Shown: positions 9,353 to 28,046, counted from the stretch's first letter. The stretch is 64,000 bases of DNA from Bdellovibrionales bacterium (GCA_050250515.1 JBFWON010000004.1:3248-67247), one strand, 5' to 3'. Notes: generated by a model from the letters alone, not told the origin. Numbers and translations: made by a program.

Positions 9353-10715
9353 TCTTGATGTACGATCGGTTCGACTTTTTCGTTTCAGTCTTGGAATTTT
9401 AATTTTAGTCGACTTGGCCAGTCGGCTTGAAAATTTCACCGATCATTACTTGTCTTCAGGGCTTCTGCCCCTGAGTTCCGTGCCGTATCGGAACAGCTAT
9501 TTTGCCCAGATCAATCCCTTTATGTGGAGCAGTTCTCCCATTTGGGTGGGGGCTCTCTTCGGCACCATCGGACTGTTGGCACTTATACTGATTGCCGATA
9601 GATTCCCTCGCACCACCAGCTTTGCTCTGTGGTTTATGTTGCTTAGTCTTAGTCGGCGCAATCCCTTCATCGGTTACAGTGCGGATAGTTTAATGCAATT
9701 GGGTTTGCTCTGGTCCGCCTTCATTCCCCGCGCAAAAAAAGGTGAATCGTCTATCTTGAGCGTCGGGACTGCCGCCGTGGTTTTACAAGTGGTGATGCTC
9801 TATTTTTCAGCTGGATTGCATAAGGACATTCGCGACTGGTGGTACTTCCCCCACGCCACCTACCTGGCGGTCTCAAGCGATATGTATGGACGCCCCTTCG
9901 GGCGCCTGTTGATGGGCTTTCCCAATCTCATGCAGTACTCCACCATGGCTGTGTTTTTGATTGAACGATTCGCCTATTTTCTGTTTCTTTCACCTTGGCG
10001 TAATGGGGCCTGCCGGATTTTGGGAATCGCAGTATTCGGGGGCATGCACATGGCCTTCACCGTGTTTATGAATCTTGGCTTTTTCCCCTACATCGACGTC
10101 GCGATTCTGCTCGCTCTTTTGCCAAGATCTTTTTGGGACCGACTTGGGGTTGCGGCCGATTTTAAATGGAATCGAAGTCTCCCTAACCTTGAATACGCTC
10201 TGCAATCGGGAGCATTCGCTCTTCTTGCCGTGTCGATTTTTAAGTCGGCGGTCAGCGTTCCGATGTTTAGAAAGGAACCACCCAGAATCATTCAAAATCC
10301 TGCGCAATTTTTTAACCTTCGGCAACAATGGGCGATGTTTTACCCATCACACGCCATCCCTGATGGATACTACAAAATTATAGGCTATTCGGAAGATGAT
10401 CGGGCCTTCGACTTGCTGGAAAAAAAATCGGTCGAAACCTGGATTGAAAAACCAGAAAACCTTTATCGAGATTTAGGCGGCATGCGGCCCCTCCGCTTGC
10501 TGGATTACGCCCGGCATGGAGAACTCAAAGACCTGCTCACCAGGTATGGAAGAAAATATTGTCGTGAACTTTTGGAGATGGCTCCCCCACCTGCCAATTG
10601 GTCCCGGGTTGAAATCATGTTTGTTAGGGAGAACACGGTCTCGCCTCAACTTCCGGTCGCCGTCGAAATGGATCGAACTTTTTCAGCCAATTGCTTAGAT
10701 GCGGCCTATCGATGA
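9327..10715 (+). CDS. HTTM domain membrane protein (vitamin K-dependent gamma-carboxylase-like)
   Basis: LDVRSVRLFRFSLG, RNP, YFSAGLHK and QQWAMF motifs; multiple TM segments. Confidence 0.8.
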   Translation: MTKFLAIFSLDVRSVRLFRFSLGILILVDLASRLENFTDHYLSSGLLPLSSVPYRNSYFAQINPFMWSSSPIWVGALFGTIGLLALILIADRFPRTTSFALWFMLLSLSRRNPFIGYSADSLMQLGLLWSAFIPRAKKGESSILSVGTAAVVLQVVMLYFSAGLHKDIRDWWYFPHATYLAVSSDMYGRPFGRLLMGFPNLMQYSTMAVFLIERFAYFLFLSPWRNGACRILGIAVFGGMHMAFTVFMNLGFFPYIDVAILLALLPRSFWDRLGVAADFKWNRSLPNLEYALQSGAFALLAVSIFKSAVSVPMFRKEPPRIIQNPAQFFNLRQQWAMFYPSHAIPDGYYKIIGYSEDDRAFDLLEKKSVETWIEKPENLYRDLGGMRPLRLLDYARHGELKDLLTRYGRKYCRELLEMAPPPANWSRVEIMFVRENTVSPQLPVAVEMDRTFSANCLDAAYR

Positions 10716-11989
10716 CGGCGACGGTAAGCCTTGCGAAGCTCCCTGGCGAATGAAGAGTCCAAGCGAGCGCGATTGAGTGTTTCGATTCGCCGAGACGACA
10801 AATCCAGTGACTTTCGAATCTCCTTTGAATTTGCCGCCTGATCATAAATCCAGTTGATCGCTTCGATCGTTTCGTGCTCGGCGCTGTAAGAGAATTCAGC
10901 GATTCCATCGGCAAATGTTTTGCCAGGTTGCGCTGCCGCCGCTAGGGCTTGGTCAATCCGGGCCAAGACCAGCTGCCATTGTTGAACAAATGCCACTTCC
11001 CGATCCTCAAGGCCTTTGGTGCGGGAAGAACCGAAAGTTGCCACATAAACCGTGCGCTTGTGATCATCGGCCCGAATCCATTTCGGATCGTCATCGACGA
11101 TCATGACTCGCTGGCCAGATTCATCGAGAATGCGAAGGTCTTTAAAGTAGCCGTACCCTGCTGAGCCGTAGGAATAGCCGCCCCCATAGCCATATCCACC
11201 ACTATATTGAGTAGACATATGGAAATCCGTCAAGACTCCATCGACAAAATGCCGAAGTCGCTTATCCCCAATTTTGGCCGTATCCGCGATAGCCTGAATG
11301 AGGTGATCATCATTACGTGAAAAGAGAACAATTCCCAAGTTTCGATTTCTGAGCTGCTGAAAGAACCAATCCCAACCTGGCGACATTCCTACGAAAATGG
11401 GGCGGCCTCCCCACTTATTGTTAAAGGAAAATGTGGTGCCTTCGTTTGGAGCACTTCGCTGGTCCAGCAAAGTACCGTCAACATCGATTGCAATGACCGC
11501 TTGATACTTCGTCAGCTTTTCCGCATTGAGACCCGATCGACCCTTACCGGCCTTAACATCGGATACTAATGAGTAGGCCGCAGAATAGGAAACTCTCATC
11601 TCAGCCCTTAGGTCCGCCGCCTCAAGACGAGTCAACTTGTGCTCGCGCATGACGAGATCCAAATTGGTTGGATCGGGCCCAAGGGGCGAAAGCGGCTCAG
11701 GAGGCTTCGGCGGTTTGCTCGCACCGGACGGTTTGTACTCCGATACCTTGCTGGATTTTGTTTCCTTGGCCTTAGACCCAAACATATTGTCGGTCCAAAT
11801 CGCGAGGTACTGTTCACAGGCTTCGGTCCAAAGTTTGTCCATGGTCTCTGGCTTAGCAGTCAGGGGCGTCTCCTGCTTGGCGGCTTGGGCTTCTTTCTCT
11901 TTTTTCTTCTTTTTTGATTTGGATGAGGCCTGAGCTGTTGAAGTCAGCGCCAGAGAAATCAAAATGAGAAGAGCTCGCTTCATGTTCAC
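10706..11989 (-). CDS. Secreted HAD-superfamily (NIF/FCP1-like) phosphatase, family A copy 1
   Basis: Signal peptide ending TAQA; DVDGTL, LFSRN, KDLR and IVDDDP (HAD motifs I-IV). Confidence 0.8.
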   Translation of the reverse strand: MNMKRALLILISLALTSTAQASSKSKKKKKEKEAQAAKQETPLTAKPETMDKLWTEACEQYLAIWTDNMFGSKAKETKSSKVSEYKPSGASKPPKPPEPLSPLGPDPTNLDLVMREHKLTRLEAADLRAEMRVSYSAAYSLVSDVKAGKGRSGLNAEKLTKYQAVIAIDVDGTLLDQRSAPNEGTTFSFNNKWGGRPIFVGMSPGWDWFFQQLRNRNLGIVLFSRNDDHLIQAIADTAKIGDKRLRHFVDGVLTDFHMSTQYSGGYGYGGGYSYGSAGYGYFKDLRILDESGQRVMIVDDDPKWIRADDHKRTVYVATFGSSRTKGLEDREVAFVQQWQLVLARIDQALAAAAQPGKTFADGIAEFSYSAEHETIEAINWIYDQAANSKEIRKSLDLSSRRIETLNRARLDSSFARELRKAYRRRHR

Positions 11990-11991
11990 GA

Positions 11992-13371
11992 TTAGTCCTT
12001 GTCGTCTTTGTCTATGTCGTCTTTGCTGGAGAACCAGCCAAACATACCCGTCGATGTCTTTGCTTTCTTTTTGTTCTCTTTACCAATCAGGGCTATGGCC
12101 TCTTTAGGATTCTTTCGAATCCAGTCGCGCACATCCTTATATTCCTTAAATTTGGGTATCTTTTCGTAGTCCAGCTCACGATGCTCCTCGAGAAGCTTCC
12201 GAACCACATCTTCCATCAGATAGGTGTAAGGAAGGAGCGCATGTGCCATGGTCACCTGGGGATATTTTCTTACCAATTCAACCGAATCTTCGATTAGGCT
12301 AGCCACGATTTCGAAATCGTTGGCATGCTCCTGCATAAGCTCCTGAACCAAGGAGGGCAGTCGACTGTCTTTTGGCTTTTTGCCTCGTTTGGCAAAATAC
12401 CGATCCTCGGCATCTTTCTCCATCTTGCGTACATCAAATTCTCGGGCGCGAATCACCTGCAGGTGATCTTCTGTTCGAATGTAAATGGGTTCATCATCAA
12501 TGAAGACAATATTTGAGTCCCCCAGAAGACGACGGTCCTTGCGGGCGAATTTGTGCGAATTTTCGACTTGATCTTCCGTCGACGCCGCCGCCAGAAGTCC
12601 TGTGTCTACCATATAACTACCACTCAACACGCCCGCCACATAATGACGTAACGGCTTTCCATCGAGGGTGATAATGTCGGCCAAAGCGTGGATCCGGTAG
12701 TCACTGTTGCGTGAATACAGCACGATCGGCACTTTTAGTTTCAGCAGGCGCCGCAAAAAGTGATCCCAACCCGGCGCCATGGCTACATAAATAGTCTGCT
12801 CTTTGTTCTTGGCCTTCAGTGAAAAGGTGGTTATCCCATCCTTCCATGAGCTTCGGTCCTGATCCAATATGGTTCCGTCAATGTCGAGTGCTATGACTGC
12901 CTTTTCGTGTGCCAGCTTTTTAGGATCCAAACCCGACATGTAGTGGCCGGCCCTTACATTGTTCACAATGCGCAGAAATTCAACATCAGAGGTGATTAAC
13001 TTATGCATTCTTCGATATTGGGCCTGAACTTCGGCGGCTTCAAATCGAGTCAGTTTGAAATCCTTCATCAATTCGTCGATTTTGAAGCGATCGGACTTTT
13101 CAATCCACTGCTCGCGACTTCCCGAACTGACGATTTGAGCTCCACTGTCCACCCGATCAACTGTAAATCTTGAGTAAGTTTTCGACTCTCCAAAAAGATA
13201 GTTCCAATGCCGGGGAAGCGGTTCTCCGGAAGACGTCGGGGCCAAATAGGTCGTAGAAGAGTTCAGGAAAGCTTGGCAATTCAACCAATGATCCTTATCA
13301 AAATCGGCCGCCGACACCACAGCCGGCAGCAAAATTCCCAATATGGTTAGGAGCGAAGCCAGATTTTTCAT
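11992..13371 (-). CDS. Secreted HAD-superfamily phosphatase, family A copy 2
   Basis: Start at MKNLASLL gives a clean signal peptide; DIDGTIL, LYSRN, RKDRR, FIDDE. Confidence 0.8.
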   Translation of the reverse strand: MKNLASLLTILGILLPAVVSAADFDKDHWLNCQAFLNSSTTYLAPTSSGEPLPRHWNYLFGESKTYSRFTVDRVDSGAQIVSSGSREQWIEKSDRFKIDELMKDFKLTRFEAAEVQAQYRRMHKLITSDVEFLRIVNNVRAGHYMSGLDPKKLAHEKAVIALDIDGTILDQDRSSWKDGITTFSLKAKNKEQTIYVAMAPGWDHFLRRLLKLKVPIVLYSRNSDYRIHALADIITLDGKPLRHYVAGVLSGSYMVDTGLLAAASTEDQVENSHKFARKDRRLLGDSNIVFIDDEPIYIRTEDHLQVIRAREFDVRKMEKDAEDRYFAKRGKKPKDSRLPSLVQELMQEHANDFEIVASLIEDSVELVRKYPQVTMAHALLPYTYLMEDVVRKLLEEHRELDYEKIPKFKEYKDVRDWIRKNPKEAIALIGKENKKKAKTSTGMFGWFSSKDDIDKDDKD

Positions 13372-13536
13372 ATTCGGCCAGTTTGTATGCAAAGGTTGTG
13401 CTTCATCAAGAACCACAAGGAAACGGGCCCGTACATTTCCCGCCCAAAATTGGCAGCACGGTTACGAAATTGAGCCTGAAAAGTGATCTAAACGTGCGAT
13501 TTAGGCTCCCTCTTTCAAAAAAGCGGACAATGAACC

Positions 13537-13552
13537 CGGTACCGGCTTTGCT
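13537..13552 (+). promoter_or_regulatory. Putative sigma54 -24/-12 promoter for the 13623-19854 unit
   Basis: CGGTAC-CGGCT-TTGCT, GG-N10-GC, in the divergent intergenic region. Confidence 0.5.
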
Positions 13553-13622
13553 CTCTAGCACCACGATCTAACATTTGAGCCGCACGAGGTTTGTTTTGGA
13601 ACGTTATGTGCCGAGGAAGGCC

Positions 13623-15206
13623 ATGGGCCTAAATTTAGTCGCCTTGCTGTGTGTGGGAGCCCTCCATCTCACTTCGGCCGCTGCATCCATATCCAGCCTG
13701 CTGAACCAAGAGGATCGGCCTGATATTATGGAGGTCAGCAAAATTCCCGAAAAGGAGTGGATTGAGTTCTATGGCTCTGGTGCTCTCACTGCTGATGGCA
13801 AAACTGAAAAGGTTTTTCCGTTGGTCAGAGCCCTTCAACAAATTTTAAGCTCCTCCTATTCTGGCCAAGATATCTACATATTAGGTCGCGACGGCGAGCC
13901 CATTTTCGATGCTCTCCGAGTCAGCGCAAAAAGCTCCGCTCAGCGCGAGCGCATACATCTGATTCAAATTAGCCGAAAGGTCGTGCAGACCACCAACGCC
14001 GCGCAGATTCTTGGCTATCTCAAGCACCACGGATTTGATCTGCCATCGATAACTAGTGGCCATCAATCGGCCGTCTTTATCGACACAGGATATTCTGGAA
14101 CTATTTATCGTAGCCTCCTATCCACCTTTACCGCGCGTCTCAAACAGGCCGGCGTTGATGGGGCAGGTTTAAGAAATTTCTTTTCGAATGTTGATTTTCG
14201 ACTTATCGCTTCGGAAAATTCTGAGAATCCGAGCTTTGACACTCTCAAAGAAAAAGTCGTTACCAACGGCCCTAACTATGCCTGGAGCTTGGTTCAGTCA
14301 GCCAACGTAAGCGGCCTCAGCTTTGGGACCATTCCCAGCGGAAGCTGGCGAAGCAAAGCTGGATTGCCCAGCGACAATCACTCCTCTTGGCAATGGGTTG
14401 TAACAAATTTGGAATACACCGCCAAATGGATGGGACGATGTCAGTCCGTCACCGCCAGCGGCGTTGAGAATTTTATGCCGGACGGGAAAGACCACCAGTA
14501 TCTAGATCGAAAAGCTTACTTGAAACGAATGGCCACGATTGTGGCTGAGTTCTCAGCCTTTCAGAAGCCGATCGAAAAGGTAACGCCGATAAAGGCCGCT
14601 CTCACCCCGCTCGATGCCGAGCAACTGGTCGGACAGGATTTAGGCCCTGGAGATTTAATTAAGGCGGATTCGCAAGTGTTCTCAGTTGTAAAGGAACTCG
14701 AGAGTACGGACGACGCCCGCTATTTCCTTATCAACGAAGTTAAGACCGACAAGGCACGCGTTCTAAAAGTCATGGCTGATGGAGCCGACCCAGAGGTCAT
14801 TGCAGTCGATGTCCGCAATGCCCGCCGATTCAAGAAATTCAATGTTCCTCATTCGCGCGTCGTTGCCCACGGAGAATCTTACCTGATTCGCAGTCACGTT
14901 GAAGGCACCCTTGCCCGCGACTGGGTGAAGTCGTGGATAAAGGCGGGAGAGCCGCAAAGCAATTCAGCGCTTAAGGCGTTAAGGGTTTTAATAAAAGACC
15001 TCGCGAGTCAGGGCGTCTACATCGGCAACCTTAATCTGAATGGCACCGTTTGGTCGGGATCTGAATGGGTGGTAATCGAATCCGGAAAAGTTCGAACGGG
15101 TAAGGCTTCCGCTGAAGTCATGGCAGACTATGTGGAAAACATCAATCGTCGATGGCTCAAGCACTCCAAATGTGAAAAGCTGCTCGAACTTAAGGAAGCC
15201 GCATGA
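13623..15206 (+). CDS. Secreted PRTase-like domain + degenerate kinase-like domain protein, family B copy 1
   Basis: ATG 13623 after GAGGAAGG; signal peptide; YILGRDGE and VFIDTGYSGTI; kinase-like C-terminus VLKV...YIGNLN...VIESG; ends CEKLLELKEAA. Confidence 0.7.
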   Translation: MGLNLVALLCVGALHLTSAAASISSLLNQEDRPDIMEVSKIPEKEWIEFYGSGALTADGKTEKVFPLVRALQQILSSSYSGQDIYILGRDGEPIFDALRVSAKSSAQRERIHLIQISRKVVQTTNAAQILGYLKHHGFDLPSITSGHQSAVFIDTGYSGTIYRSLLSTFTARLKQAGVDGAGLRNFFSNVDFRLIASENSENPSFDTLKEKVVTNGPNYAWSLVQSANVSGLSFGTIPSGSWRSKAGLPSDNHSSWQWVVTNLEYTAKWMGRCQSVTASGVENFMPDGKDHQYLDRKAYLKRMATIVAEFSAFQKPIEKVTPIKAALTPLDAEQLVGQDLGPGDLIKADSQVFSVVKELESTDDARYFLINEVKTDKARVLKVMADGADPEVIAVDVRNARRFKKFNVPHSRVVAHGESYLIRSHVEGTLARDWVKSWIKAGEPQSNSALKALRVLIKDLASQGVYIGNLNLNGTVWSGSEWVVIESGKVRTGKASAEVMADYVENINRRWLKHSKCEKLLELKEAA

Positions 15207-16666
15207 AGCTTTGGATTGCCCTTGCGCTATGGTCGTCCACCGGGTTTGCCTCGGACTGGAATAACCCCTCCACTGGCCACCAAGACCCCCCGTTTTTTCA
15301 AGAATGTCAGGCGTTCTTGGCTTCCGTTTCTCCTTTTCGGGGATCTGTTTCTCAATTCCAACAGCTTCCCCATCACTGGCAGTATTTGTATGGCGAATCC
15401 GAGCCCACCCCCCGATTTACGATTCAACGGGCCCATGAAGACCACATTCCCAATGCCTCCTCTGTTAGCGATGAGCTTTACATAGAAAAATCAGAACGCT
15501 TTAATATTGATGCCCTTATGCGCGACTTCAGCCTATCGCGCTTGCAGGCCGCTGAAGTCCAGGCCCAATACCGAAGGGCACATAAACTGATCGCTTCTGA
15601 TTTGGAATTCACGCGCATCGTTTCGGACGTGCGCGCGGGTCGCTTTATGTCGGGTATTAATGAGCAAGACCTGCTCCGCAACCCCACCGTCGTCGTTTTA
15701 GATGTAGATGGTACGCTTTTGGACCAAGACCATAGCTCGTGGAAAGACGGCCTGACCACCTTTTCCTTTCGCGATGAGGGCAAGTACAAAACCGTTCACG
15801 TGTCGATGACTCCAGGTTGGGACATTTTGATCAAAAAATTGGTCGAACTAAAAGTTCCTGTCGTTCTTTATTCGAGAAATTCGGATTATTTGATCCAAGC
15901 CCTTGTGGATTTCATTCAACTCGACGGACGTCCCCTACGCTCATATGTTGCCGGGGTCCTCTCCTCAAGTCATATGGTTGACACCGGGCAATTTGCAACC
16001 GCCACGATTCGTGAGCAAATTTCGAATCAATCTAGGCTCGTTCGCAAAGATCTTCGGATGCTGGGTGGGTCGAACGTAATCTTGATAGACGACGATGAAA
16101 AATACATTCGCGAAGACGACTACCTGCAAGTGCGAAAAGTGAAAAAGTTTGATCCGAGTTATGCCAGGCCAGAGGAGTTTGTCGATCAGTTTCGGCGTGT
16201 TTCCCTTGAGATTGCTGAGTCAGTGTCCGTGGTCCGCAAATACGGCATTGAGTTTTCGCGCGCCCACCTACCCTTTGCATTTGAAATGAAATCAGTGATG
16301 CTTTCATTGTTAGAGATCGATCGATTTGGTGAGTTTAAGGGAATTCCGCGATTCAAAACGCCCGTCGAGGCCCGAATTTGGGTTCGCACGCATCCGGAAA
16401 AAGCGATTGCACTCATTGGCAAGTCCAACAAACGACCAGAACTTAAGTACATTCCCAAACCCTCTTCTTGGTTCGGCGGATGGCTGGGTCGCCCATGGGG
16501 CTCGACCGGCAATGACCATGAGGCGGTAGTGAAGCCATCGGAAACTGGACCGCGCCCGAATACACCTCCCTCTACTAGCGGCTCGGGTTGGGATTCTCGC
16601 TTAGACACTACCGTTCCCAGACCACGTCCCAAACTGATTTTACCAGGAGATGGCGATGGGTCTTAG
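15203..16666 (+). CDS. Secreted HAD-superfamily phosphatase, family A copy 3
   Basis: ATGA-coupled to upstream gene; signal peptide; DVDGTLL, LYSRN, RKDLR, LIDDD. Confidence 0.8.
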   Translation: MKLWIALALWSSTGFASDWNNPSTGHQDPPFFQECQAFLASVSPFRGSVSQFQQLPHHWQYLYGESEPTPRFTIQRAHEDHIPNASSVSDELYIEKSERFNIDALMRDFSLSRLQAAEVQAQYRRAHKLIASDLEFTRIVSDVRAGRFMSGINEQDLLRNPTVVVLDVDGTLLDQDHSSWKDGLTTFSFRDEGKYKTVHVSMTPGWDILIKKLVELKVPVVLYSRNSDYLIQALVDFIQLDGRPLRSYVAGVLSSSHMVDTGQFATATIREQISNQSRLVRKDLRMLGGSNVILIDDDEKYIREDDYLQVRKVKKFDPSYARPEEFVDQFRRVSLEIAESVSVVRKYGIEFSRAHLPFAFEMKSVMLSLLEIDRFGEFKGIPRFKTPVEARIWVRTHPEKAIALIGKSNKRPELKYIPKPSSWFGGWLGRPWGSTGNDHEAVVKPSETGPRPNTPPSTSGSGWDSRLDTTVPRPRPKLILPGDGDGS

Positions 16667-18467: not shown

Positions 18468-18480
18468 GGAGTATAGTGTC

Positions 18481-19854: not shown

Positions 19855-19921
19855 AAGGCCTCCAATGGTCACCTAAAGTGCTGAAAATTATAGCGAAAAT
19901 TGTCTCCAATTGACCAGAAAG

Positions 19922-19947
19922 GGCGCCTCAAAGGCGCCTGGTTTTTT
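19922..19947 (+). terminator. Rho-independent terminator
   Basis: ggcgcct-caa-aggcgcc stem followed by tggtttttt, downstream of the PRPP synthetase-like gene. Confidence 0.7.
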
Positions 19948-19994
19948 GCCGGCGACCTCAGGTCCAATTCGTTTCACTTGGCTCAAGCTTCTTT

Positions 19995-20010
19995 TGGCAC
20001 AAGGCCTGCT
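19995..20010 (+). promoter_or_regulatory. Putative sigma54 -24/-12 promoter for the 20058-28046 unit
   Basis: TGGCAC-AAGGC-CTGCT, GG-N10-GC. Confidence 0.6.
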
Positions 20011-20057
20011 TTATCTCTCCTCGTCCATAAAACTTTAAGAATTTGAGAGGTCGACCC

Positions 20058-21023
20058 ATGCAGCGCCCGGTTTGTCTTTGCCTTGCCCTCGCCATTGGAC
20101 TGTCTACGGCTCCCGCCTTCGCGGCCCGAGCCAAAAAACCCAAGGCACCGCCGGCCCAGCCGATCGCTCAAGACGTCTGTGAGCCCGCCCTTGCGACGGC
20201 TGCCACAAGCAACGGGGCGCCGTCTGAGGTTTCGCTGATCGCGGACTCAGTTGATCGTATGGCGAACTTCAAAAAACTATTCGGCACCTCAAAACCCATC
20301 ATCGCTATGGTTCACCTAGCTGGCAAAGACACTTGGGACATTTTAAAGCGAGTTGAAGAAGAATTAGATATTTTTGTCCGCCAGGGCGTCGAAGCAGTGA
20401 TTGTGGAAAACTATCACAGCAAAGACGTGAACGTCATGCACCTGGCTCTCCACCTTTTCGTCAAACGCTACCCACAATTGGTCTTTGGCGTAAATGTTCT
20501 CCCCAACGAAATTGAAGTAGCCTACGAAATGGCGGCTGCCCATGGTGCCAAATTTATCCAATTTGACCACGTGGCTGGCACCTACATGGGATTTGGGTAC
20601 AGCGGCGCAACTCGAAAAGCCGACCGAAAAAAACTGGAAGAAATGCGAAAGAAGTATCCTCAAATCCAAATTCTGGGTGGGGTTCACCCCAAATACTACG
20701 ATCCCGTTCCTGGATCAGACCTCGGAAAAGATTTGCGTCGAGGTGTTCGCCGGTCTGACGCGATCGTGGTCACGGGTACGGGAACTGGCATCGCCACTCC
20801 TTTAGATAAGATCAAAATTTTTCGTCAAGAAATCGGAGCTAAGGTCCCTTTGGTGGTCGGAGCCGGCGTCGACATTCAAAATGTCCGAAGTCAACTAGCC
20901 ATAGCGGACGGAGTGATCATTGGAAGTTACTTCAAGGGAGGTGAAACCTTCAACAAGACTGACGAAGGTCTCGTAGCTGGTTTTATGAAAGTGGTGCGTG
21001 AAATCCGGGATCAAAATCCGTGA
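20058..21023 (+). CDS. BtpA/SgcQ family TIM-barrel protein with signal peptide
   Basis: KPIIAMVHL, VIVENY, GVNVL, DAIVVTGTGTG, ADGVIIGSYFK; signal ending APAFA. Confidence 0.85.
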   Translation: MQRPVCLCLALAIGLSTAPAFAARAKKPKAPPAQPIAQDVCEPALATAATSNGAPSEVSLIADSVDRMANFKKLFGTSKPIIAMVHLAGKDTWDILKRVEEELDIFVRQGVEAVIVENYHSKDVNVMHLALHLFVKRYPQLVFGVNVLPNEIEVAYEMAAAHGAKFIQFDHVAGTYMGFGYSGATRKADRKKLEEMRKKYPQIQILGGVHPKYYDPVPGSDLGKDLRRGVRRSDAIVVTGTGTGIATPLDKIKIFRQEIGAKVPLVVGAGVDIQNVRSQLAIADGVIIGSYFKGGETFNKTDEGLVAGFMKVVREIRDQNP

Positions 21024-22600
21024 CGATCTTACGCTCATTTCTTCTTGTCCTCGCTATGGTCACTGGTGTCGCCCACGGCGCCACGATTGCTCAGCTGTTA
21101 AAGCAAGAGGAGCGACCGACTATTGAACAGGTCATGGAGATTTCGGAAGCGGATTTCATCAAACACTATGGAGCCGGCGCCTACACAACAGATCCCAAAA
21201 TGTCCGCCATGTTCAACGTCTTTAAAGCCATCCGTACGACAATCGACTCCGAGTATGTCGATTACGACGTTTTTATCCTAGGCCGTGACGGTGAGTCTTT
21301 GTTCGACGCTATGAGGGCTTCTCTAAAAGGGGCGGCCAAAGAGCGTGTTCATCTCGTTCAAATCAGTCGAAAGGTCGTCACGCAGAGTCTGCCTAACGAA
21401 ATCCTCGGCTATCTGGGGCTCAGTGGATTTAATATTGAAGCCCTAAGAACATCAAAGAAGAAAGCCCTTTTTATCGACACCGGATTCAAGGGTAGAATCT
21501 ATCGAAGTCTCTTGAACATATTTTTGACTCAACTCTATCAGAATGGGACATCCGATCACAGCAGTCTAAAAACTTTCCTATCCAACCTCGAATTCAGACT
21601 GATCGCCTCGGAGCAGCCCGCCGGATCCAGCTATCTGACGAGTCGTCAGTATGTCCTGAATGGACAATATGCCATTCAACACATGCTTCAGGTGGCGGGA
21701 CAACTTTACTTCCCCACGATTCCTGAAAAAGATCGGGAAAAGCATGGCCTTCCTGTTGGCCCTAAAGAGTCCTGGAAGTGGGTGGTCGATCACATGGAAC
21801 ACACCGCTAAGTGGACGGGACGCGCCCAGACGGTCTCTTCAACTGGTCAGGTCACCTATCAAGTAGAAGAAAAAGATAAACCGCTTCTCAACAAGCCGGA
21901 GTACCTACGGCGAATGGCCATCTTGGCGAATGAATTTGGTGTCCCAAAAAAGTCAAAGAAGTCCGATGGCAAGGCCGAGATCCGCACCTTTCATTTTCCC
22001 GATTTGGCTCTGATTGGTGAGACCTTATTAGAAGGCGATGTCATTCACATTTCCGGCACAACTTATCACGTACACGCCCACATAGACACTGGCAAGCGAG
22101 GCACAGTTTACAAAATCTCAAATGAGAAAGGCGATCTCTTTGCCCTGAAAGTGGCCAATGAACCCACTGAGGAATGCCTACAGTCCCTGCAGAAAGATGT
22201 TGTCAAATCCGGTCTGTATGCCGCTCTTGGCATCGGATACGCCGAAGTTGTGGCCCACGGCGAAGGTTTCGTGCTGAAGAAATTCATCGAGGGTCAAAGA
22301 GCCGATGAATGGGTTCAAGCCTGGATCGCCGGCGGAAAAAAACAAAACGACAAGGGGTTAAAGGCTCTACGTGCGTGGATCCAACACATCGCAGATCAAG
22401 GATACTATATCGGCGACCTCAACCGCAAAAACGCCATCTGGACCGGTTCTCAATGGGTCATTATCGATGGCGGAGAACCCCGCAGCGATTTGGGCCCCCA
22501 AAAAGCCGCCGAAAAGTTCAGGGAATCCATCAATCACCGCTGGCTCAAACATGTTGATGATGTCGAGTGTGAGTTGATTTTAGTGAAGGAGGCCGCATGA
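21020..22600 (+). CDS. Secreted PRTase-like domain + protein-kinase-like domain protein, family B copy 2
   Basis: FILGRDGE, LFIDTGFKGRI; kinase motifs GKRGTVY, ALKVA, GDLNRKN, IDGG; ends CELILVKEAA. Confidence 0.75.
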   Translation: MTILRSFLLVLAMVTGVAHGATIAQLLKQEERPTIEQVMEISEADFIKHYGAGAYTTDPKMSAMFNVFKAIRTTIDSEYVDYDVFILGRDGESLFDAMRASLKGAAKERVHLVQISRKVVTQSLPNEILGYLGLSGFNIEALRTSKKKALFIDTGFKGRIYRSLLNIFLTQLYQNGTSDHSSLKTFLSNLEFRLIASEQPAGSSYLTSRQYVLNGQYAIQHMLQVAGQLYFPTIPEKDREKHGLPVGPKESWKWVVDHMEHTAKWTGRAQTVSSTGQVTYQVEEKDKPLLNKPEYLRRMAILANEFGVPKKSKKSDGKAEIRTFHFPDLALIGETLLEGDVIHISGTTYHVHAHIDTGKRGTVYKISNEKGDLFALKVANEPTEECLQSLQKDVVKSGLYAALGIGYAEVVAHGEGFVLKKFIEGQRADEWVQAWIAGGKKQNDKGLKALRAWIQHIADQGYYIGDLNRKNAIWTGSQWVIIDGGEPRSDLGPQKAAEKFRESINHRWLKHVDDVECELILVKEAA

Positions 22601-24084
22601 CCCGCCTATTCGTAGTGCTCGGACTGGCCGCACTATCTTCTCAAACCGTTTTGGCCGGCGATAAACCTCATCGACCGAGCGCCTGTGAAGTGTACGCCAC
22701 GACTTCAAATCCCTACGTGCACGCTTCAAAACCTGGCGAAAAAATTCCCAAACATTGGCAGTATCTCTTTGGCGAGGACGAGACCTATCCCCGCTTTAAA
22801 ATTGACCGTGTCGACAAAAGCCAAGACATCGTCGCGCAAGAATCGAGTTCGGAGCACTGGATTGAAAAATCAGATCGCTTCAAAATTGATGAGTTAATGA
22901 AGGATTACAATTTGACTCGACTCGAAGCTGCCGAGGTACAGGCGCAGTACCGTCGCAAGCACAAATTGATCAGTTCCGACTTTGAATTCGAGGCTATTGT
23001 GAATCGAGTTCGGGCCGGCCACTATATGTCGGGTCTCAATCCCAAACAGCTGGCCAAGGCGCCGGCCGTCATTGTGCTCGACATTGATGGGACCTTGCTC
23101 GATCAGGACAGCTCGAAGTGGCATGACGATCTGACTAGTTTTTCCTTTCGATACAACGACAAACTCAAAGGCGTGAATGTCGCAATGGCGCCCGGTTGGG
23201 ATGATTTTCTAAGAAGAATCATGAAGCTCGATCTACCTATAGTTTTGTATTCACGTAATAGCGATTATTTGGTTCATGCTTTAGCCGATTTCATCAAACT
23301 TGATGGCAAGCCCATTTCTCAAGTGGTGTCAGGTATTTTGAGTTCAAGCCACATGGTCGACACCGGGTCTCTGGCCAAGGCCAGCGTCTTTGAACAGACA
23401 AGTTCGGCCTACAAATTTGTTCGCAAAGATTTGCGCCTGATTGGCAATCCCAACATGATTTTAGTCGATGACGATGCCACTTACATTCGAAGAGAAAATC
23501 GCTGGCAAATGCATCAGATTCCAAAATTTGATGTGGAAGACCTAGTGGAGCGGGCCCAAAAAGCCAATCGATCGTCTTTTTCTACTTTTGACAGGGACCG
23601 AGAGGAGCGTGACAAGGGCAAACACGGGCGCAAAAATAAGCGCCGAAAAGAAAAGAAGGATCGCGGATCCCTGATCTTAATGAAGGATTTTATTGAGGCA
23701 GAGAAAGCCGCCCATCGCGACGCCTTTGACCAAGCCGCGGCGGCGATTGAAGAATCCCTCGCGCTCGTGCACAGCCAAGGCCTTAGTCTGTTAGAGGCTC
23801 ACCTACCCTATTCCTATCCGATGCAGGAAGTGATTGAAGAGCTCCTCGACGACGAGCGCAGCGGCGATTTCCAAGATCTTCCCACCTTCAAAGATGAAAC
23901 TGAAGTTTTCAACTGGATAAGACAAAATCCTGAGCAAGCGCGGAATTTGGTCGGAAAAAAGAAGAAAAAGAAAGAATTCAAAAAGCACGACAGCTTTGGC
24001 CCCTTATTTCCTCCCTGGACCTACTTCGGATTAGGGTCCTATGGGAAAGACGATGATGGAGACAAAGGCGATGGCGGGAATTAA
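22597..24084 (+). CDS. Secreted HAD-superfamily phosphatase, family A copy 4
   Basis: ATGA-coupled; signal peptide; DIDGTLL, LYSRN, RKDLR, LVDDD. Confidence 0.8.
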   Translation: MTRLFVVLGLAALSSQTVLAGDKPHRPSACEVYATTSNPYVHASKPGEKIPKHWQYLFGEDETYPRFKIDRVDKSQDIVAQESSSEHWIEKSDRFKIDELMKDYNLTRLEAAEVQAQYRRKHKLISSDFEFEAIVNRVRAGHYMSGLNPKQLAKAPAVIVLDIDGTLLDQDSSKWHDDLTSFSFRYNDKLKGVNVAMAPGWDDFLRRIMKLDLPIVLYSRNSDYLVHALADFIKLDGKPISQVVSGILSSSHMVDTGSLAKASVFEQTSSAYKFVRKDLRLIGNPNMILVDDDATYIRRENRWQMHQIPKFDVEDLVERAQKANRSSFSTFDRDREERDKGKHGRKNKRRKEKKDRGSLILMKDFIEAEKAAHRDAFDQAAAAIEESLALVHSQGLSLLEAHLPYSYPMQEVIEELLDDERSGDFQDLPTFKDETEVFNWIRQNPEQARNLVGKKKKKKEFKKHDSFGPLFPPWTYFGLGSYGKDDDGDKGDGGN

Positions 24085-25933
24085 ACAGGCCCTTGTTTTT
24101 TTGATCCTATTCGTCAGCACCGCTCGGGCGACGGAGTTTTACTCTTCGCGCCCCGACGTCTTAACTCTTAAAGCCGAACAAGTCGGTGCAGAATCCGGCA
24201 TCGCCAGCTCCCATAAGGTTCGCCGTGGTTATATGGTGCTGCTCGCGCAACTTATGACCTTTTTCCCAGACTCCGAGTATTACTTTTTGGCCCGTGACAT
24301 TGAATACCTGTACGACACGGCTCGAGTTTTGTTTCGAAACCAGCCCGCCATGCTAAAGCGATTCCACGTGGTTCCAATCAGCACCGTTTTGTCAAAGTCT
24401 TCGGGCCTGAAAGAATATTTGACCTCCCATGGAGTGACGAAAGCCAAACTCAAAGGGCGGCCCGCCCTGTTTGTGGACTCCTGTTGCGCAGGCACGGTTC
24501 CCGACAACATTAAGGCAGTCCTCCATTACACCGGCGTAAAAGTCCAAGGCTTTTTAATTCAAAACACCAAATACCCGGAAAGCGCGTTGTTCGCCACAAT
24601 CGCGGCAACCGGAAGCGCCATTGAAAAACATCCGCACTATACTCTTTCAGGGACAGGATTTGTGGCCAAGACAGGTATGCCCTACGATGTCTCCACCAGT
24701 GGTCTAGATAAACCGACTCAATCCGTCGCTTTTATGAAATCCATTCGCCATGATTTTGACAACGCATCGGCTCGCAAAGAATTCGCTGATATTTTGAAAC
24801 AAATGCGGATTGTTTATGCTTATCTGACAAAATCGATGGGCATGCACACCGCCCAAGCGGCGAATGCCCTACTCAAGCTCAAGAAGGTGCACGATCTTCC
24901 TGCAGATGAATTGCTAAGTGACATGGTAAGTACGGAGCGTGAAGGCTATGCGTCCGTTGATTCCGCTCGAGTCGAGGCCCTTAAAGAAAAGGTCGCCGGG
25001 GGAATCTATGACCCCGCTATGAAAATGCCCGCGGTCGATACGATGAAAAGCGAATCATCACTTATTGTGAAGGACCTATACAAATACTCGAAGGAAGACC
25101 AGATTGCCATGTCCAAGAGTTCGATGGGTGATTTGGCTGACGACTCAATGGACGATCTGGCGCCAGATCTAGAGCAAGATTTCTCAGGCGGGGATCTCCA
25201 ATCCAAGTATAAGAAAGCCGTGCTGTTTTGGATGAAAGCCCTCGAGCCCTCGTGGATCGAAGCAGAAAAAAGTACTGGTCGCCATTTGATCGTCGCCTCC
25301 GAGCGCGCCGGAACTTTGCCTGAGGCCCTGGATCTCTTGTTCGGCATGATTCCCAATGACTCCTATCTTGAGACCAACGAGCCCCCGGCGATCGTGAAGG
25401 CGGTGGCCTCCAGCGTCACTAGAGCGGCCTCCCACTATCAGTTCACCTTAAGCAGCTCGACTCCCCTGCAAGAAATTTTGCGCCACGATCTGATGCGAAG
25501 CCACTACTTGGCGAAAAAACTGATCCGACAGATTTTGACGGAGGGCAATCCTAAGTATTTTGATCGCCTGGCCCGCACTATCATACAGTCCGCTCCTCAC
25601 CTCGTGGAAAACCCACGCGTATTGCGATGGATGAAGTCGGCGATCGAATCTATGGACAGCATTTCACCATTGCTGTTTCAAGCGATCTGGAACTCAAAAG
25701 ATCTGCCCAAGCATGAAAAGTACAATGGCTTCATTCGCTTCGTACTTTCACAAAAAAAGAAGTTTCAAGACAAGGTGATGAGCTTGGCAGTCTCCTCCAA
25801 GGATCAGGCCTTTCAGGCTTTTCATATGGAAGCCAAATCAGAAAAGATGAGCGTCAAAGAGTTGATCGAGTTGTGGAAAGACCATACAGAGAAAAAAGAC
25901 TGCGAAGAAGCCTTGCTTGAGGAGGCCGCATGA
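24071..25933 (+). CDS. Secreted PRTase-like domain protein with helical C-terminal extension, family C copy 2
   Basis: Start MAGIKQ gives a signal peptide; YYFLARDIEYL, FVDSCCAGTVP, EKHPHYT; ends CEEALLEEAA. Confidence 0.7.
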   Translation: MAGIKQALVFLILFVSTARATEFYSSRPDVLTLKAEQVGAESGIASSHKVRRGYMVLLAQLMTFFPDSEYYFLARDIEYLYDTARVLFRNQPAMLKRFHVVPISTVLSKSSGLKEYLTSHGVTKAKLKGRPALFVDSCCAGTVPDNIKAVLHYTGVKVQGFLIQNTKYPESALFATIAATGSAIEKHPHYTLSGTGFVAKTGMPYDVSTSGLDKPTQSVAFMKSIRHDFDNASARKEFADILKQMRIVYAYLTKSMGMHTAQAANALLKLKKVHDLPADELLSDMVSTEREGYASVDSARVEALKEKVAGGIYDPAMKMPAVDTMKSESSLIVKDLYKYSKEDQIAMSKSSMGDLADDSMDDLAPDLEQDFSGGDLQSKYKKAVLFWMKALEPSWIEAEKSTGRHLIVASERAGTLPEALDLLFGMIPNDSYLETNEPPAIVKAVASSVTRAASHYQFTLSSSTPLQEILRHDLMRSHYLAKKLIRQILTEGNPKYFDRLARTIIQSAPHLVENPRVLRWMKSAIESMDSISPLLFQAIWNSKDLPKHEKYNGFIRFVLSQKKKFQDKVMSLAVSSKDQAFQAFHMEAKSEKMSVKELIELWKDHTEKKDCEEALLEEAA

Positions 25934-26994
25934 TCCGATTCGTTTTGGCTCTTACACTCTTCTTCCATCTGGCTGCGCAGGCGCAAACCGAGGCCCCCAA
26001 GTATTACGATGAGCGCCCTGACGTTTTGACTGTGCAACCGGACCCCAACGGCAAGCGATACTTTCAGCAAGGTGGTTTCAACTACTCGTTGTATGAAAAA
26101 GCGGCGATGGCCTATGGCCCACTCTTAGCCGAGATCATGACTTTCTTTCCCGACGACGAGTATTATTTTTTAGCCCGTGACATTGAGTACCTTTACGACA
26201 CCGCTCGGGTCTTGTTTCAATTCGACGAAGTCACGTCCAAACGTTTTCATCTTTTACCAGTTGGACGCCTCAACGCGACTAGGGCAAACATAGATGAATA
26301 TCTGGCCCAAGAAGGTTTGACTCAAGCCAACCTACAAGGCCGGCAGGCCCTGGCCATTGATTCCTGTTGCTCTGGCAGTATCCCGAAGCACATTGCCGCC
26401 ACGGTGAGAAATCGCGGCGTTCAAGTCCGAGGCTTTTTAATCGAAACTGACGATTTCCCAAAAAGTACACTTTTCAAAAGTATGGCGCTGCGTGGTCGAC
26501 ACATCGAGGATTTTCCCCACTACACGGGGACCGCAAATGGATTTGAACGCGATGCGACCGGTCGCCTTCGGGTCACCACTGAGGGGGAGGAATTCCACCC
26601 TGCGGCTGCGAGCAAGTTGATGTTTGAAATTCGCAAACTCTATGAAAGCGCCGACGCCCGCCGAAGATTTCAAGATATGCGGGAGAAAATGACGACCGCG
26701 TATGAATACTTGAAAGGCGGGTCGAGGTCTCGCGCCGCTGCGATCCAGGCTCTCTTGAGTTTGCGGGACGAGCATAATCTACCGGCTCAAGCGTTTCTCG
26801 ACGATGCCTTCTTAACCAATAAAAGAAATCCACTCTATCTCGTCGATAAATCGCTTTATCAGGACCTCGCCACTTATCTCATGCAACATCCGAAAGAGGT
26901 CCCAGCACCACAGTCTGCCCCCCTGCAAGTCAGCGTTAGCATTTCGATTGGCAACGTCCAAGTTCACTCCTGTCAGGTCGCATTGACACAGTAG
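25930..26994 (+). CDS. Secreted PRTase-like domain protein, family C copy 3 (short)
   Basis: ATGA-coupled; YYFLARDIEYL, AIDSCCSGSIP, EDFPHYT; ends CQVALTQ. Confidence 0.7.
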   Translation: MIRFVLALTLFFHLAAQAQTEAPKYYDERPDVLTVQPDPNGKRYFQQGGFNYSLYEKAAMAYGPLLAEIMTFFPDDEYYFLARDIEYLYDTARVLFQFDEVTSKRFHLLPVGRLNATRANIDEYLAQEGLTQANLQGRQALAIDSCCSGSIPKHIAATVRNRGVQVRGFLIETDDFPKSTLFKSMALRGRHIEDFPHYTGTANGFERDATGRLRVTTEGEEFHPAAASKLMFEIRKLYESADARRRFQDMREKMTTAYEYLKGGSRSRAAAIQALLSLRDEHNLPAQAFLDDAFLTNKRNPLYLVDKSLYQDLATYLMQHPKEVPAPQSAPLQVSVSISIGNVQVHSCQVALTQ

Positions 26995-27002
26995 GAGTGA
27001 TT

Positions 27003-28046
27003 ATGACTTTACAACAACTTCGATCCGCCACGGTCGCATTCTTAGCGGGATTCTTACTATCACTCACACTCCCCGTCGGGGCTGCGACCCTGTACTATGA
27101 CCAACGACCCGACATTTTAGATGTGGGTCCGTCTCCCCAGCCGACGTTGATGTCGCGACTGACTGGATGGCTGGAAAAAAGTAGACGGAACCCTCCGCCT
27201 GATTTCAGTCGCTCTGTTCGCGCCTACCCTGTCCTGTTGGCGCAAATCATGGCTTTCTTTCCGGAAGACGAATACTATTTTCTAGCCCGGGACATTGAAT
27301 ATCTCTACGACACCGCTCGAGTGATTTTTAAGGACGACCCCAACATGCTCAAGCGATTTCACCTTTTGCCGCTTGGAAGACGCTTGGTTCGCGATCCAAT
27401 GTTGAACGATTATCTCGCCACCCAAGGGTTGACGAAAGACAATCTGGGAAATCGCTCCGTCCTGGCTATTGATTCCTGTTGCATCGGGACCATCCCCGAT
27501 TTTTTGGCCCGCAACCTAGAGACTCAAGGGATTGACGTTCGCGGGTTTCTGGTGACCTCTTCCCAGTACCCGAGCAGCAAGGTCTATGAACGGATGGGCG
27601 CCGAAGGGCCTGTTTTGGAAGAGCAGCCCCATTACACCGGAACTGCGATTGGACTCGATTGGAGTGAAGAGGGCCGATTTCGAGTGCGGACGCACGAAGA
27701 AGGTGCCAATCCAGAGATAGCAAGTTCCATGATGGAAAGGATTCGAGATCTTCACGACAACGATGAAATCCGCCGCCAGTTTTTTGATTTGAAAGAAAAT
27801 ATGAGCACCGTGTTCCGCTACCTCACCAACCTGGCGCCAACTGGCCATGTGGCCTCAGCGCAAGCCTCCAAAGCAGCCCAAGCTTTGGTTCGCCTGCGAG
27901 GTGTTCATCATTTGCCCATTTACGATTTTTTAGATGACGCCCTTAATATGAATCGAAAGAATTACGTTAGAATCGACTACGAGCGCATCATCACTTTGCG
28001 AACACTGTCGGCCAGTATGATATGTCAATCCGCGCTGACGCGGTAA
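27003..28046 (+). CDS. Secreted PRTase-like domain protein, family C copy 4 (short)
   Basis: ATG 27003 after AGGAG; YYFLARDIEYL, AIDSCCIGTIP, EEQPHYT; ends CQSALTR. Confidence 0.7.
   Translation: MTLQQLRSATVAFLAGFLLSLTLPVGAATLYYDQRPDILDVGPSPQPTLMSRLTGWLEKSRRNPPPDFSRSVRAYPVLLAQIMAFFPEDEYYFLARDIEYLYDTARVIFKDDPNMLKRFHLLPLGRRLVRDPMLNDYLATQGLTKDNLGNRSVLAIDSCCIGTIPDFLARNLETQGIDVRGFLVTSSQYPSSKVYERMGAEGPVLEEQPHYTGTAIGLDWSEEGRFRVRTHEEGANPEIASSMMERIRDLHDNDEIRRQFFDLKENMSTVFRYLTNLAPTGHVASAQASKAAQALVRLRGVHHLPIYDFLDDALNMNRKNYVRIDYERIITLRTLSASMICQSALTR

Follow-up and report, generated by a model that had tools for sequence, protein, structure and literature searches.

In the genome of a Bdellovibrio-like bacterium (Bdellovibrionales bacterium, GCA_050250515.1) we studied a stretch of 64,000 nucleotides (JBFWON010000004.1:3248-67247), which we call the window, and within it a 17-kb island of twelve adjacent open reading frames (ORFs) at positions 10706-28046, the same coordinates that an earlier note on this DNA had given. 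We refer to the genes in order as G1 to G12. They encode four HAD phosphatases of the NIF family, six paralogs that share a domain resembling glycan phosphoribosyltransferases (gPRT-like), a homolog of phosphoribosyl pyrophosphate (PRPP) synthetase (Prs), and a BtpA/SgcQ-family barrel. This inventory, which the earlier note had drawn up, is confirmed by Pfam, by TIGR01251 and by an alignment of the six paralogs. Throughout, A denotes the NIF phosphatases, and B and C denote the gPRT-like paralogs (G3, G5, G8, G10, G11 and G12).

G1 (10706-11989, 427 aa) and G2 (11992-13416, 474 aa by the longest ORF, with Met16 as the likely start) lie on the minus strand, and each encodes a NIF HAD phosphatase with an export-type N-terminus. 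From G3 to G12 the genes are on the plus strand and diverge from G2. In G3 (13575-15206) a gPRT-like domain (~13683-14594) is followed by a C-terminal kinase-like domain (~14625-15203); G4 (15203-16666, 487 aa) is a further NIF HAD phosphatase with an export-type N-terminus; G5 (16650-18467) combines a gPRT-like domain (~16722-17609) with a C-terminal region of ~300 aa that matches no family; and G6 (18442-19854, 470 aa) is the PRPP-synthetase homolog, with an export-type N-terminus and a Prs core at ~19051-19806. The BtpA/SgcQ-family TIM barrel, G7 (20043-21023, 326 aa), again has an export-type N-terminus. It is followed by G8 (21020-22600), whose gPRT-like domain (~21077-21979) precedes a minimal protein-kinase-like domain (~22007-22597); by G9 (22597-24084, 495 aa), the last NIF HAD phosphatase with such an N-terminus (NIF core ~23068-23529); and by G10 (24041-25933), with a gPRT-like domain (~24128-25030) and a C-terminal region of ~300 aa. 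The final two genes, G11 (25930-26994, 354 aa), whose protein we modelled, and G12 (26997-28046, 349 aa), consist of the gPRT-like domain alone.

The divergent intergenic region between G2 and G3 (13417-13574, 158 bp) is the presumed promoter region of both arms; a promoter scan scored no consensus there, and sites overall were no more numerous than in shuffled sequences (12 versus 15.4). The plus-strand genes abut or overlap, with gaps of -44 to +2 nt, except for 188 nt between G6 and G7. Since this gap contains a strong terminator-like hairpin on the plus strand (19921-19939) followed by a T-run to 19949, we divide the plus strand into G3-G6 and G7-G12. The island thus has three units: G2-G1 (A-A), G3-G6 (B-A-C-Prs), and G7-G12 (BtpA-B-A-C-C-C). 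The B-A-C module is present twice, and its copies are 38-47% identical at the protein level, so the duplication must be old.

Neither Pfam nor NCBIfam has a family that the six B/C proteins match. Common to all six is an N-terminal domain of ~280 aa with 22 invariant columns, including L-x-R-D-x-E...D...D-x4-G. When a profile of the six domains was searched against 1.84 billion representatives, it retrieved 460 proteins at E<=1e-3, of which 343 reach E<=1e-10. Most of the best 150 relatives carry (E)SYxxRPDIL, FLARD[SGA]E and DTGFxGT ahead of a C-terminal region whose length varies widely. Ten long members of the family were compared with Pfam, where eight matched no family and two gave short, unconvincing matches; among ten relatives whose names were looked up, three are called 'hypothetical protein' and seven are nameless. 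Narrower searches returned less. A word-index homolog search with G11 recovered just this genome's own paralogs (3 proteins), the gPRT-like alignment led to three named genome loci in a related-locus search (metagenome-assembled genomes of Oligoflexia, Bdellovibrionales and Bdellovibrionia) and to one 1.3-kb contig in a metagenome search, and a metagenome scan with alignment A2 of the cluster proteins gave 590 pattern matches and no relative. This genome has eight gPRT-like copies in total, six of them in the island. The two paralogs outside it lie at 90034-91929 of contig C2 (ending ..VCEKALAAGE) and at 9-1406 of contig C10 (ending ..RCEQALAA).

The AlphaFold2 model of G11, built from a 98-row alignment, has a predicted local distance difference test score (pLDDT) of 90.8 and a predicted template modelling score of 0.86. 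We compared this model exhaustively with 48,161 chains using VIA-align. The top match is 8a0c_A, residues 639-939, which is the CriT part of Bcs3, the capsule polymerase of Haemophilus influenzae type b (Z 13.7, root-mean-square deviation (rmsd) 3.5, 196 residues aligned), and the second is 7shg_B, residues 261-579, the transferase part of a polysaccharide ribofuranosyltransferase from Thermobacillus (Z 12.9, rmsd 3.6, 205 aligned). Both are PRPP-dependent glycan ribofuranosyltransferases, the two of this type with solved structures. After these two outliers come type I nucleobase phosphoribosyltransferases (PRTases) and Prs, at Z 5.8-3.9. The modelled fold thus supports the view that the B/C domain is a fold relative of PRPP-dependent glycan phosphoribosyltransferases, a relationship that the earlier note had proposed and that the distance between the two leading Z scores and the remainder bears out.

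According to PMC10299916, residues 599-1036 of Bcs3 form CriT, a PRPP-dependent ribofuranosyltransferase in which D680 and E818 replace the DD motif of PRTases, and in which phosphates are held by S678/R679, by S707/R708/R712, and by residues 821-825 with T825. In the G11 model, strand 1 is followed by the invariant R-D, strand 2 by the near-invariant S(-R), and strand 3 by the invariant D and then TGxxGT; we match these to the loops of CriT by the order of secondary-structure elements. We read this, by analogy and from the model, as the B/C family sharing CriT's active-site plan. Like CriT (8A0C) and the Thermobacillus composti enzyme (7SHG), the G11 model has a PRT-like five-stranded alpha/beta core flanked by helical bundles; the polar loops behind strands 1-3, with (S/A)RD, SR and (E/D)..TGxxGT, would be analogous, and in both settings the transferase has a HAD phosphatase encoded next to it. 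Unlike those enzymes, which PMC11127046 describes as cytoplasmic, the island proteins have signal-peptide-like N-termini, and they show no detectable sequence similarity to them. Moreover, the island transferases are not fused to a phosphatase, and the phosphatase belongs to another HAD clade; the proteins have variable C-terminal regions and a terminal cysteine tag (described below), and a Prs-like gene of their own is linked to them.

The homology of G6 is plain at the level of sequence. It matches TIGR01251, ribose-phosphate diphosphokinase, at 201 bits (cut-off 113), along with three Pfam models for Prs or PRT domains. Its residues 204-450 align to Bacillus subtilis Prs (1dkr) with E 1.9e-31, and the alignment retains SHAAQ, NKQRD and DDETASGGT, which we take to contain the catalytic His, the K-x-R of the flexible loop, and the DD..SGGT loop that binds ribose-5-phosphate. 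G6 therefore resembles class I Prs (1DKR) in keeping the His, the K.R loop and the ribose-5-phosphate loop, and differs from it in its signal-peptide-like start, its C-terminal Cys tag, its membership of a clade of its own, and its extra N-terminal stretch of ~170 residues, which contains a degenerate copy of the N-terminal half of Prs. An ordinary prs gene of 315 aa, without a signal-peptide-like start, is present on contig C31 and is 29% identical to G6. G7 matches BtpA (PF03437) at 103.4 bits against a cut-off of 30, over profile positions 2-252 of 254; its relatives in the sample of 301 genomes from the phylum (a sample that includes this genome) are all distant, the best having 33% identity.

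All four A-family proteins exceed the cut-off of PF03031 (NIF), 21.8 bits, with G1 at 33.8, G2 at 28.6, G4 at 32.9 and G9 at 38.2 bits, and the D[VI]DGT motif is invariant among them (DVDGT in G1). The AlphaFold2 model of G9 comes from a shallow 6-row alignment and has a pLDDT of 66.7, with most of the HAD core at 80-95. Its best fold matches are SCP1 (1t9z, Z 17.5), UBLCP1 (15.8), CTDNEP1 (15.7), Fcp1 (15.4) and TIM50 (14.6), as against Z of at most 12.9 for generic HADs. Because the G9 model matches the series from SCP1 to TIM50, with neither 8a0c nor 7shg among its top 50, we conclude from the model that the A family branched from the cap-less SCP/FCP clade, as a bacterial and apparently exported line, and is not of the PRP/CrpP type. 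The earlier note had likened these HADs to the phosphoribose phosphatase of the H. influenzae b capsule polymerase (CrpP); with Z scores of 17.5-14.6 they fall in the SCP1/FCP1/Dullard clade instead. The island proteins share with SCP1, FCP1, Dullard and UBLCP1 the NIF match (four of four above cut-off), the DxDxT motif and the best fold matches, and they differ in being bacterial and apparently exported and in having helical extensions of ~130 aa at the N-terminus and ~150 aa at the C-terminus. Cap-less HADs of the SCP/FCP type act on macromolecular substrates, and the fold of the A family fits a macromolecular phospho-substrate. A word-index homolog search with G9 returned just this genome's own paralogs (3), and a complex prediction for G11 with G9 (score 0.02, mark 0.32), run without controls, is evidence neither for nor against their association.

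G3 and G8 carry an additional C-terminal domain of ~195 aa, the two copies being 34% identical in the kinase part. In the ESM Atlas, a comparison that is not validated for parts of proteins, the C-terminus of G8 falls with an OspG-family kinase cluster at 0.97 and reaches template modelling (TM) scores of 0.67-0.79 to Pkinase clusters; the kinase part of G8 also gives weak matches to TTK. For neither G3 nor G8 does a Pfam kinase model reach E 0.01. Reading the alignment by eye, we find that G8 retains the K (FALKV), the D..N (IGDLNRKN) and the D (IIDGG) of a kinase, and that G3 has Asn, Gly and Glu at the columns of G8's catalytic K, D/N and D. Given this loss of catalytic residues, the kinase-like domain of G3 is, to judge from its sequence, probably a pseudokinase. 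The G8 domain is similar in size (~195 aa) and features to minimal effector kinases of the OspG/NleH type; it differs from them in being fused behind a gPRT-like domain and in following a Sec-like rather than a type III signal. An Atlas search with the C-terminal region of G10 gave no usable match. A stand-alone paralog of the kinase-like domain (228 aa, plus strand, 22915-23601 of contig C19) has a signal-peptide-like start, and its sole Cys lies in an N-terminal CELEL motif.

The earlier note had also claimed a signal peptide for every one of the twelve proteins. By eye, 12/12 N-termini indeed run from K/R through a hydrophobic segment to a small-x-small site, and 11/12 pass a stricter home-made rule. 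G2 fails this rule solely with its longest-ORF start, which gives an acidic N-terminus; the internal start at Met16 gives MKNLASLLTILGILLPAVVSAA. Behind the hydrophobic segment of G1 and G7 there is directly a Lys-rich stretch. Applied to the whole genome, the stricter rule is positive for 1070 of 3169 proxy genes, and the longest run of consecutive positives in the genome, twelve, consists of G3-G12 plus two neighbours; the next longest is seven. Signal-peptide-like starts are found in 128 of the 150 best representatives of the gPRT-like family, and at the Prs-like loci of other genomes in 15/15 gPRT-like, 10/10 Prs-like and 7/8 LOG-like proteins.

A second feature unites the island proteins. 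All twelve have a C-[EQD]-x-x-[LA] motif at one terminus. The four NIF proteins carry it close to the mature N-terminus and have no other Cys in the whole protein (G1 C58, ..EACEQYL; G2 C47, ..NCQAFL; G4 C35, ..ECQAFL; G9 C30, ..ACEVYA); the BtpA protein has it there too (G7, ..VCEPAL, with C46 the only mature Cys). In G6 and the six gPRT-like proteins it occupies the last 6-11 residues: G3 ..KCEKLL, G5 KKKKCEEAL, G6 ICDGALE (C465, the only Cys of G6), G8 ..ECELIL, G10 ..DCEEAL, G11 ..SCQVAL and G12 ..ICQSAL. This pattern extends well beyond the island. Of the 150 gPRT-like representatives, 120 have a Cys within their last 25 residues, as compared with 9% expected at a Cys frequency of 0.37%, and in 58 of those 120 the terminal Cys is the only mature one. 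In the clusters of other genomes, a C-terminal Cys occurs in 15/15 gPRT-like and 7/10 Prs-like proteins, and an N-terminal Cys in 7/8 LOG-like proteins.

We also looked for C[EQ]xx[LF] across this genome, in crudely called ORFs no shorter than 200 aa. Among the signal-peptide-like ORFs outside the cluster (n=1308), the motif occurs within the first 50 mature residues of 32, as compared with 5 and 9 in internal zones of equal size, and within the last 20 residues of 19, as compared with 2 and 2 internally. ORFs without such N-termini (n=1598) show no enrichment at either end (14 versus 14 and 13, and 6 versus 3 and 6). That is, about 50 further signal-peptide-like ORFs carry the motif, a 4- to 10-fold excess over internal zones, and some of them exceed 1000 aa and have a single Cys; examples are C1:64007-67882, C85:3474-7340, C140:661-3675 and C81:12794-14494. 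At the mature N-terminus the tag often takes the form A-H-A followed by H-x2-5-C-E-x-P/A-L, and otherwise it lies in the last 20 residues; a His is often found 2-7 residues upstream of the tag Cys. Within the window, a minus-strand ORF of 507 aa at 1453-2976 matches no Pfam family, has a signal-peptide-like start, and has its only Cys in the N-terminal motif that the cluster proteins carry (..VEIENCEQRLVA). The motif is not a lipobox, because the Cys lies either 6-37 residues past the point of predicted cleavage or at the C-terminal end. It may serve for sorting or tethering, form an intermolecular disulfide, bind a metal or be lipidated, and a single-Cys terminal motif common to twelve proteins points to a common fate.

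We surveyed the 301-genome sample for the island's families. The gPRT-like profile matches 26 of the 301 genomes, mostly with one or two copies, and the profile of the A-family phosphatases matches three, none of which has a gPRT-like match. Prs-like genes of the exported type (E<=1e-45 to G6) occur in 11 genomes, this one included; the ten relatives elsewhere (E 2.5e-83 to 1.3e-52, 32-42% identity) all span the N-terminal extension of G6. In five of these ten other genomes (G278, G175, G047, G152 and G025), which represent four taxonomic families, the Prs-like gene has gPRT-like genes interleaved with it, one to four of them per locus as judged by hidden Markov models. At four of these loci they run in the direction of the Prs-like gene; at the fifth, that of G152, both strands carry them. 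Gene products that join a gPRT-like domain to a kinase-like region recur in G047. The other five Prs-like loci contain no gPRT-like gene, and G244 has one 68 kb away on the same contig. Co-occurrence in other genomes, which the earlier note had set as a test of its proposal, was thus found for the B/C family with the Prs-like gene and not for the A family.

An all-against-all BLAST comparison of the five linked loci reveals a third conserved family, which is LOG/SLOG-like. All eight of its members match SLOG cluster 4 and LOG (PF18306, PF03641), seven of the eight clearing the cut-off of at least one family. A tblastn search of this genome found no LOG-like homolog. At two loci from another taxonomic family, a pair of homologous genes with signal-peptide-like starts stands beside an exported-type Prs-like gene (L034 3567-5630, minus strand; L031 6847-8877, plus strand). 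The protein at L034, the one member of the pair that was scanned, is a glutamine-dependent NAD synthetase (CN_hydrolase plus NAD_synthase), and at L031 an aldehyde dehydrogenase gene (10340-12136) adjoins the Prs-like gene; such proteins add to the 'cytoplasmic' nucleotide enzymes whose N-termini look suited to export. In two genomes (L032 9797-12805 and L035 751-3759, both minus strand) the Prs-like region lies inside a signal-peptide-like ORF of 1002 aa, which looks like a fusion.

Relative to two congeners, the island is an insertion. The transketolase-like gene on its left (6584-9352) is present in 17/17 congeners, with 69-77% identity for full-length matches, and in two of these, G004 and G008, it runs into the methyltransferase gene (31184-31831) and the further right-hand genes of the window; G008 alone has an HTTM-like gene in between. 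Since the flanks adjoin in these congeners, we conclude that approximately 10706-31100, that is, the twelve genes and a DUF1552/DUF1592 pair, has been inserted. The G+C content is flat at ~0.50, and the island proteins carry a Cys motif that is found genome-wide; hence the donor was probably a related organism. The DUF1552/DUF1592 pair (28059-31048, minus strand) consists of a DUF1552 protein with HXXSHH and a protein with DUF1592/1587/1588/1595/1585; it lies inside the insertion and outside the cluster's families, and its DUF1552 gene (28059-29336) has a match at E<=1e-60 in 0/17 congeners. On the left, a plus-strand gene at 9327-10715 encodes a membrane protein with a weak match to HTTM (vitamin-K carboxylase-like) that falls short of the cut-off (19.5 against 27.7 bits); the protein ends in ..FSANCLDAAYR, and its gene shares 10 nt with the 3' end of G1. 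We leave this gene out of the system, because a 35%-identical homolog occupies the same place in G008, which has no island. Just upstream of the conserved left flank there are, on the minus strand, a PP2C protein phosphatase (4242-4976) and an M23 peptidase (3183-4187), with no link to the island that we could see.

How might these proteins work together? ATP and PRPP are absent from the normal periplasm and from the medium, and Prs and other PRPP enzymes are normally intracellular. Enzymes of this kind that leave their producer must therefore act in a compartment that holds both compounds. We propose that G6, as a divergent PRPP synthetase, would convert ribose-5-phosphate and ATP to PRPP; that the six gPRT-like proteins would use this PRPP to place ribose-5-phosphate on acceptors, which their differing C-terminal parts would probably choose; and that the four cap-less SCP/FCP-type HADs would then strip the phosphate from the modified macromolecule. 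The active-looking mini-kinase of G8 and the BtpA barrel would be accessory, and the site of action would most likely lie inside an attacked cell, in its cytoplasm or its leaky periplasm. We consider it likely that the B/C domain is a relative of PRPP-type phosphoribosyltransferases and works with the exported Prs-like enzyme. The full scheme, in which PRPP is made, ribose-5-phosphate is moved to macromolecular acceptors and dephosphorylation follows, all in a compartment that contains ATP (an attacked cell, for example), is held more tentatively and at somewhat less than even chances. What the data show are the domain identities, the relationship of folds, the signal-peptide-like N-termini, the linkage of genes elsewhere and the status of an island; PRPP as the donor, the order of the steps, the macromolecular acceptors and the target compartment are the parts that we infer. 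We think it rather unlikely that a still broader statement will prove correct, namely that Bdellovibrio-like predators possess an exported PRPP kit (a LOG-like or other supplier of ribose phosphate, Prs, and many gPRT-like proteins with interchangeable targeting regions) which phosphoribosylates the polymers of a victim using the victim's own nucleotides, and whose N- or C-terminal tag C-[EQ]-x-x-[LF], also carried by dozens of further exported proteins, is a new signal for sorting, tethering or translocation.

Several observations weigh against the proposed scheme. The gPRT assignment comes from one structural aligner and from motif analogy. A Foldseek search of the PDB with the same G11 model gave a best E of 1.7e-3, to aminotransferases, with TM scores of at most 0.20, and sequence and profile searches of PDB sequences never reached 8a0c or 7shg; the profile searches with B/C alignments returned haemagglutinin, designed helical repeats and similar chance matches. 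G5 and G10 lack an Arg behind the conserved Ser. On the side of the phosphatases, 8a0c and 7shg are missing from the top 50 fold matches of the G9 model, all of which have Z of at least 10.1, and neither an A-family phosphatase nor BtpA was found in the nine other Prs-linked loci. Thus dephosphorylation is not a conserved step, and the three-step layout that the earlier note proposed is specific to this genome and not the conserved core. Genomes with gPRT-like genes outnumber those with an exported Prs-like gene (26 versus 11 of 301), and most of the former lack the exported Prs-like gene. Signal peptides were judged by home-made rules, the sequencing runs listed as containing the stretch are all DNA, and no protein route into the prey cytoplasm is known to us in these bacteria. 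Finally, given the kinase and SCP/FCP-like domains, the targets could equally be proteins or glycans. The earlier note, then, is supported as to the fold, the linkage to Prs and the export-type N-termini, and is not supported as to the type of phosphatase and the conservation of three steps; it overlooked the terminal Cys motif, as well as the kinase-like domains of G3 and G8 and the ~300-aa C-terminal extensions that G5 and G10 carry.

An alternative is that the enzymes destroy nucleotide pools, with a net catalytic loss of the victim's adenylates and with any ribosylation of polymers incidental. In such a cycle the Prs-like enzyme would turn ATP and ribose-5-phosphate into AMP and PRPP, the gPRT-like enzyme, perhaps with water or a small acceptor, would release pyrophosphate, and, in other genomes, a LOG-like phosphoribohydrolase would split AMP into adenine and ribose-5-phosphate and so re-prime the cycle. 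Given what is known of the Prs and LOG/PpnN reactions, the chemistry would close, and the triad of Prs-like, LOG/SLOG-like and gPRT-like proteins, nearly all of them signal-peptide-like, is conserved in five other genomes. This genome, however, has no LOG-like homolog by tblastn; six paralogs with differing large C-terminal parts exceed the needs of a simple cycle, which has no role for NIF phosphatases or kinase domains, and the fold is far nearer to glycan transferases than to nucleobase PRTases. We therefore regard a nucleotide-destroying toxin as improbable. It is also conceivable that the targets are proteins: the gPRT-like enzymes would phosphoribosylate Ser, Thr or Tyr residues or phospho-sites, and the kinases and phosphatases would write and erase phosphates, possibly in a eukaryotic host. 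The resemblance of G8's C-terminus to OspG-type minimal effector kinases, with K, D, N and D kept, would suit this idea, as would the protein phosphatases (SCP1, UBLCP1, CTDNEP1, Fcp1) that lead the fold matches of the A family and the recurrence of gPRT-like plus kinase-like regions in G047. Yet no PRPP-dependent phosphoribosylation of proteins is known to us, the nearest solved relatives act on glycans, the G3 kinase looks dead, and the window holds no sign of a eukaryotic host, so that we judge protein-directed effectors distinctly unlikely.

The two remaining explanations do without a victim. The target of the enzymes could be the glycans of the producer itself, in its periplasm or on its surface, or they could assemble a ribosylated small molecule outside the cytoplasm, some exporter providing the donors. 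Known gPRT enzymes decorate capsules and O-antigens; signal-peptide-like starts are present, and the cluster stands beside other exported proteins (DUF1552/DUF1592). Extracytoplasmic ribofuranosylation as described in PMC11127046, however, uses lipid-linked donors and GT-C enzymes and not PRPP; an exported ATP-dependent Prs and a kinase would make no sense in an ATP-free periplasm, and the island contains no transporter, polyprenyl-phosphate enzyme or glycosyltransferase gene. The odds of such a self-directed system seem to us poor. Least probable of all, and in our view very much so, is that nothing is exported, the N-terminal hydrophobic segments being membrane anchors or start-codon artefacts and the enzymes acting at the cytoplasmic face. 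The home-made signal rules, the Lys-rich stretch behind the hydrophobic segment of G1 and G7, and the acidic longest-ORF N-terminus of G2 would all permit this. Against it stand the K/R-hydrophobic-AxA arrangement in 12/12 proteins and its retention in distant relatives, the very low Cys content (0.37%) with one terminal Cys, the existence of a separate cytoplasmic prs, and the longest signal-peptide-like run in the genome.

Returning to an exported PRPP system that acts on another cell, we compare it with what has been described. In the searchable literature, supplements of the cited papers aside, we found no description of an exported PRPP-enzyme system or of a terminal-Cys motif in Bdellovibrio; the earlier note, too, knew of no system with this layout. 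The gPRT and PRP modules were reportedly first described in a paper of 2022, and to our knowledge PRPP-dependent glycan ribosylation was described no earlier than 2022-2023, and solely as a cytoplasmic step in the making of capsules or O-antigens. Unlike the capsule and O-antigen loci of known gPRTs, the island has no glycan-assembly genes. PMC11127046 names the known modules gPRT and PRP and places both in the cytoplasm. It also describes a three-component route of pentofuranosylation (a polyprenyl-phosphoribose synthase, a MATE flippase and a GT136 enzyme of the GT-C type), which likewise places ribofuranose outside the cytoplasm with PRPP as the ultimate donor; that route keeps the PRPP chemistry cytoplasmic and exports the sugar on a lipid (PMC11127046), and its three components are not in the island.

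The fold of these cytoplasmic transferases is now found in a large, nameless family of export-type proteins that is repeatedly linked to an exported PRPP synthetase of its own. This suggests that the island is an undescribed way to chemically attack or mark another cell. Should the inferred chemistry prove right, predatory bacteria would have a weapon or marking system of a new kind, in which, as is rarely seen, ATP- and PRPP-dependent enzymes act outside their producer; the terminal Cys motif, in turn, may offer a handle on how such proteins are sorted.

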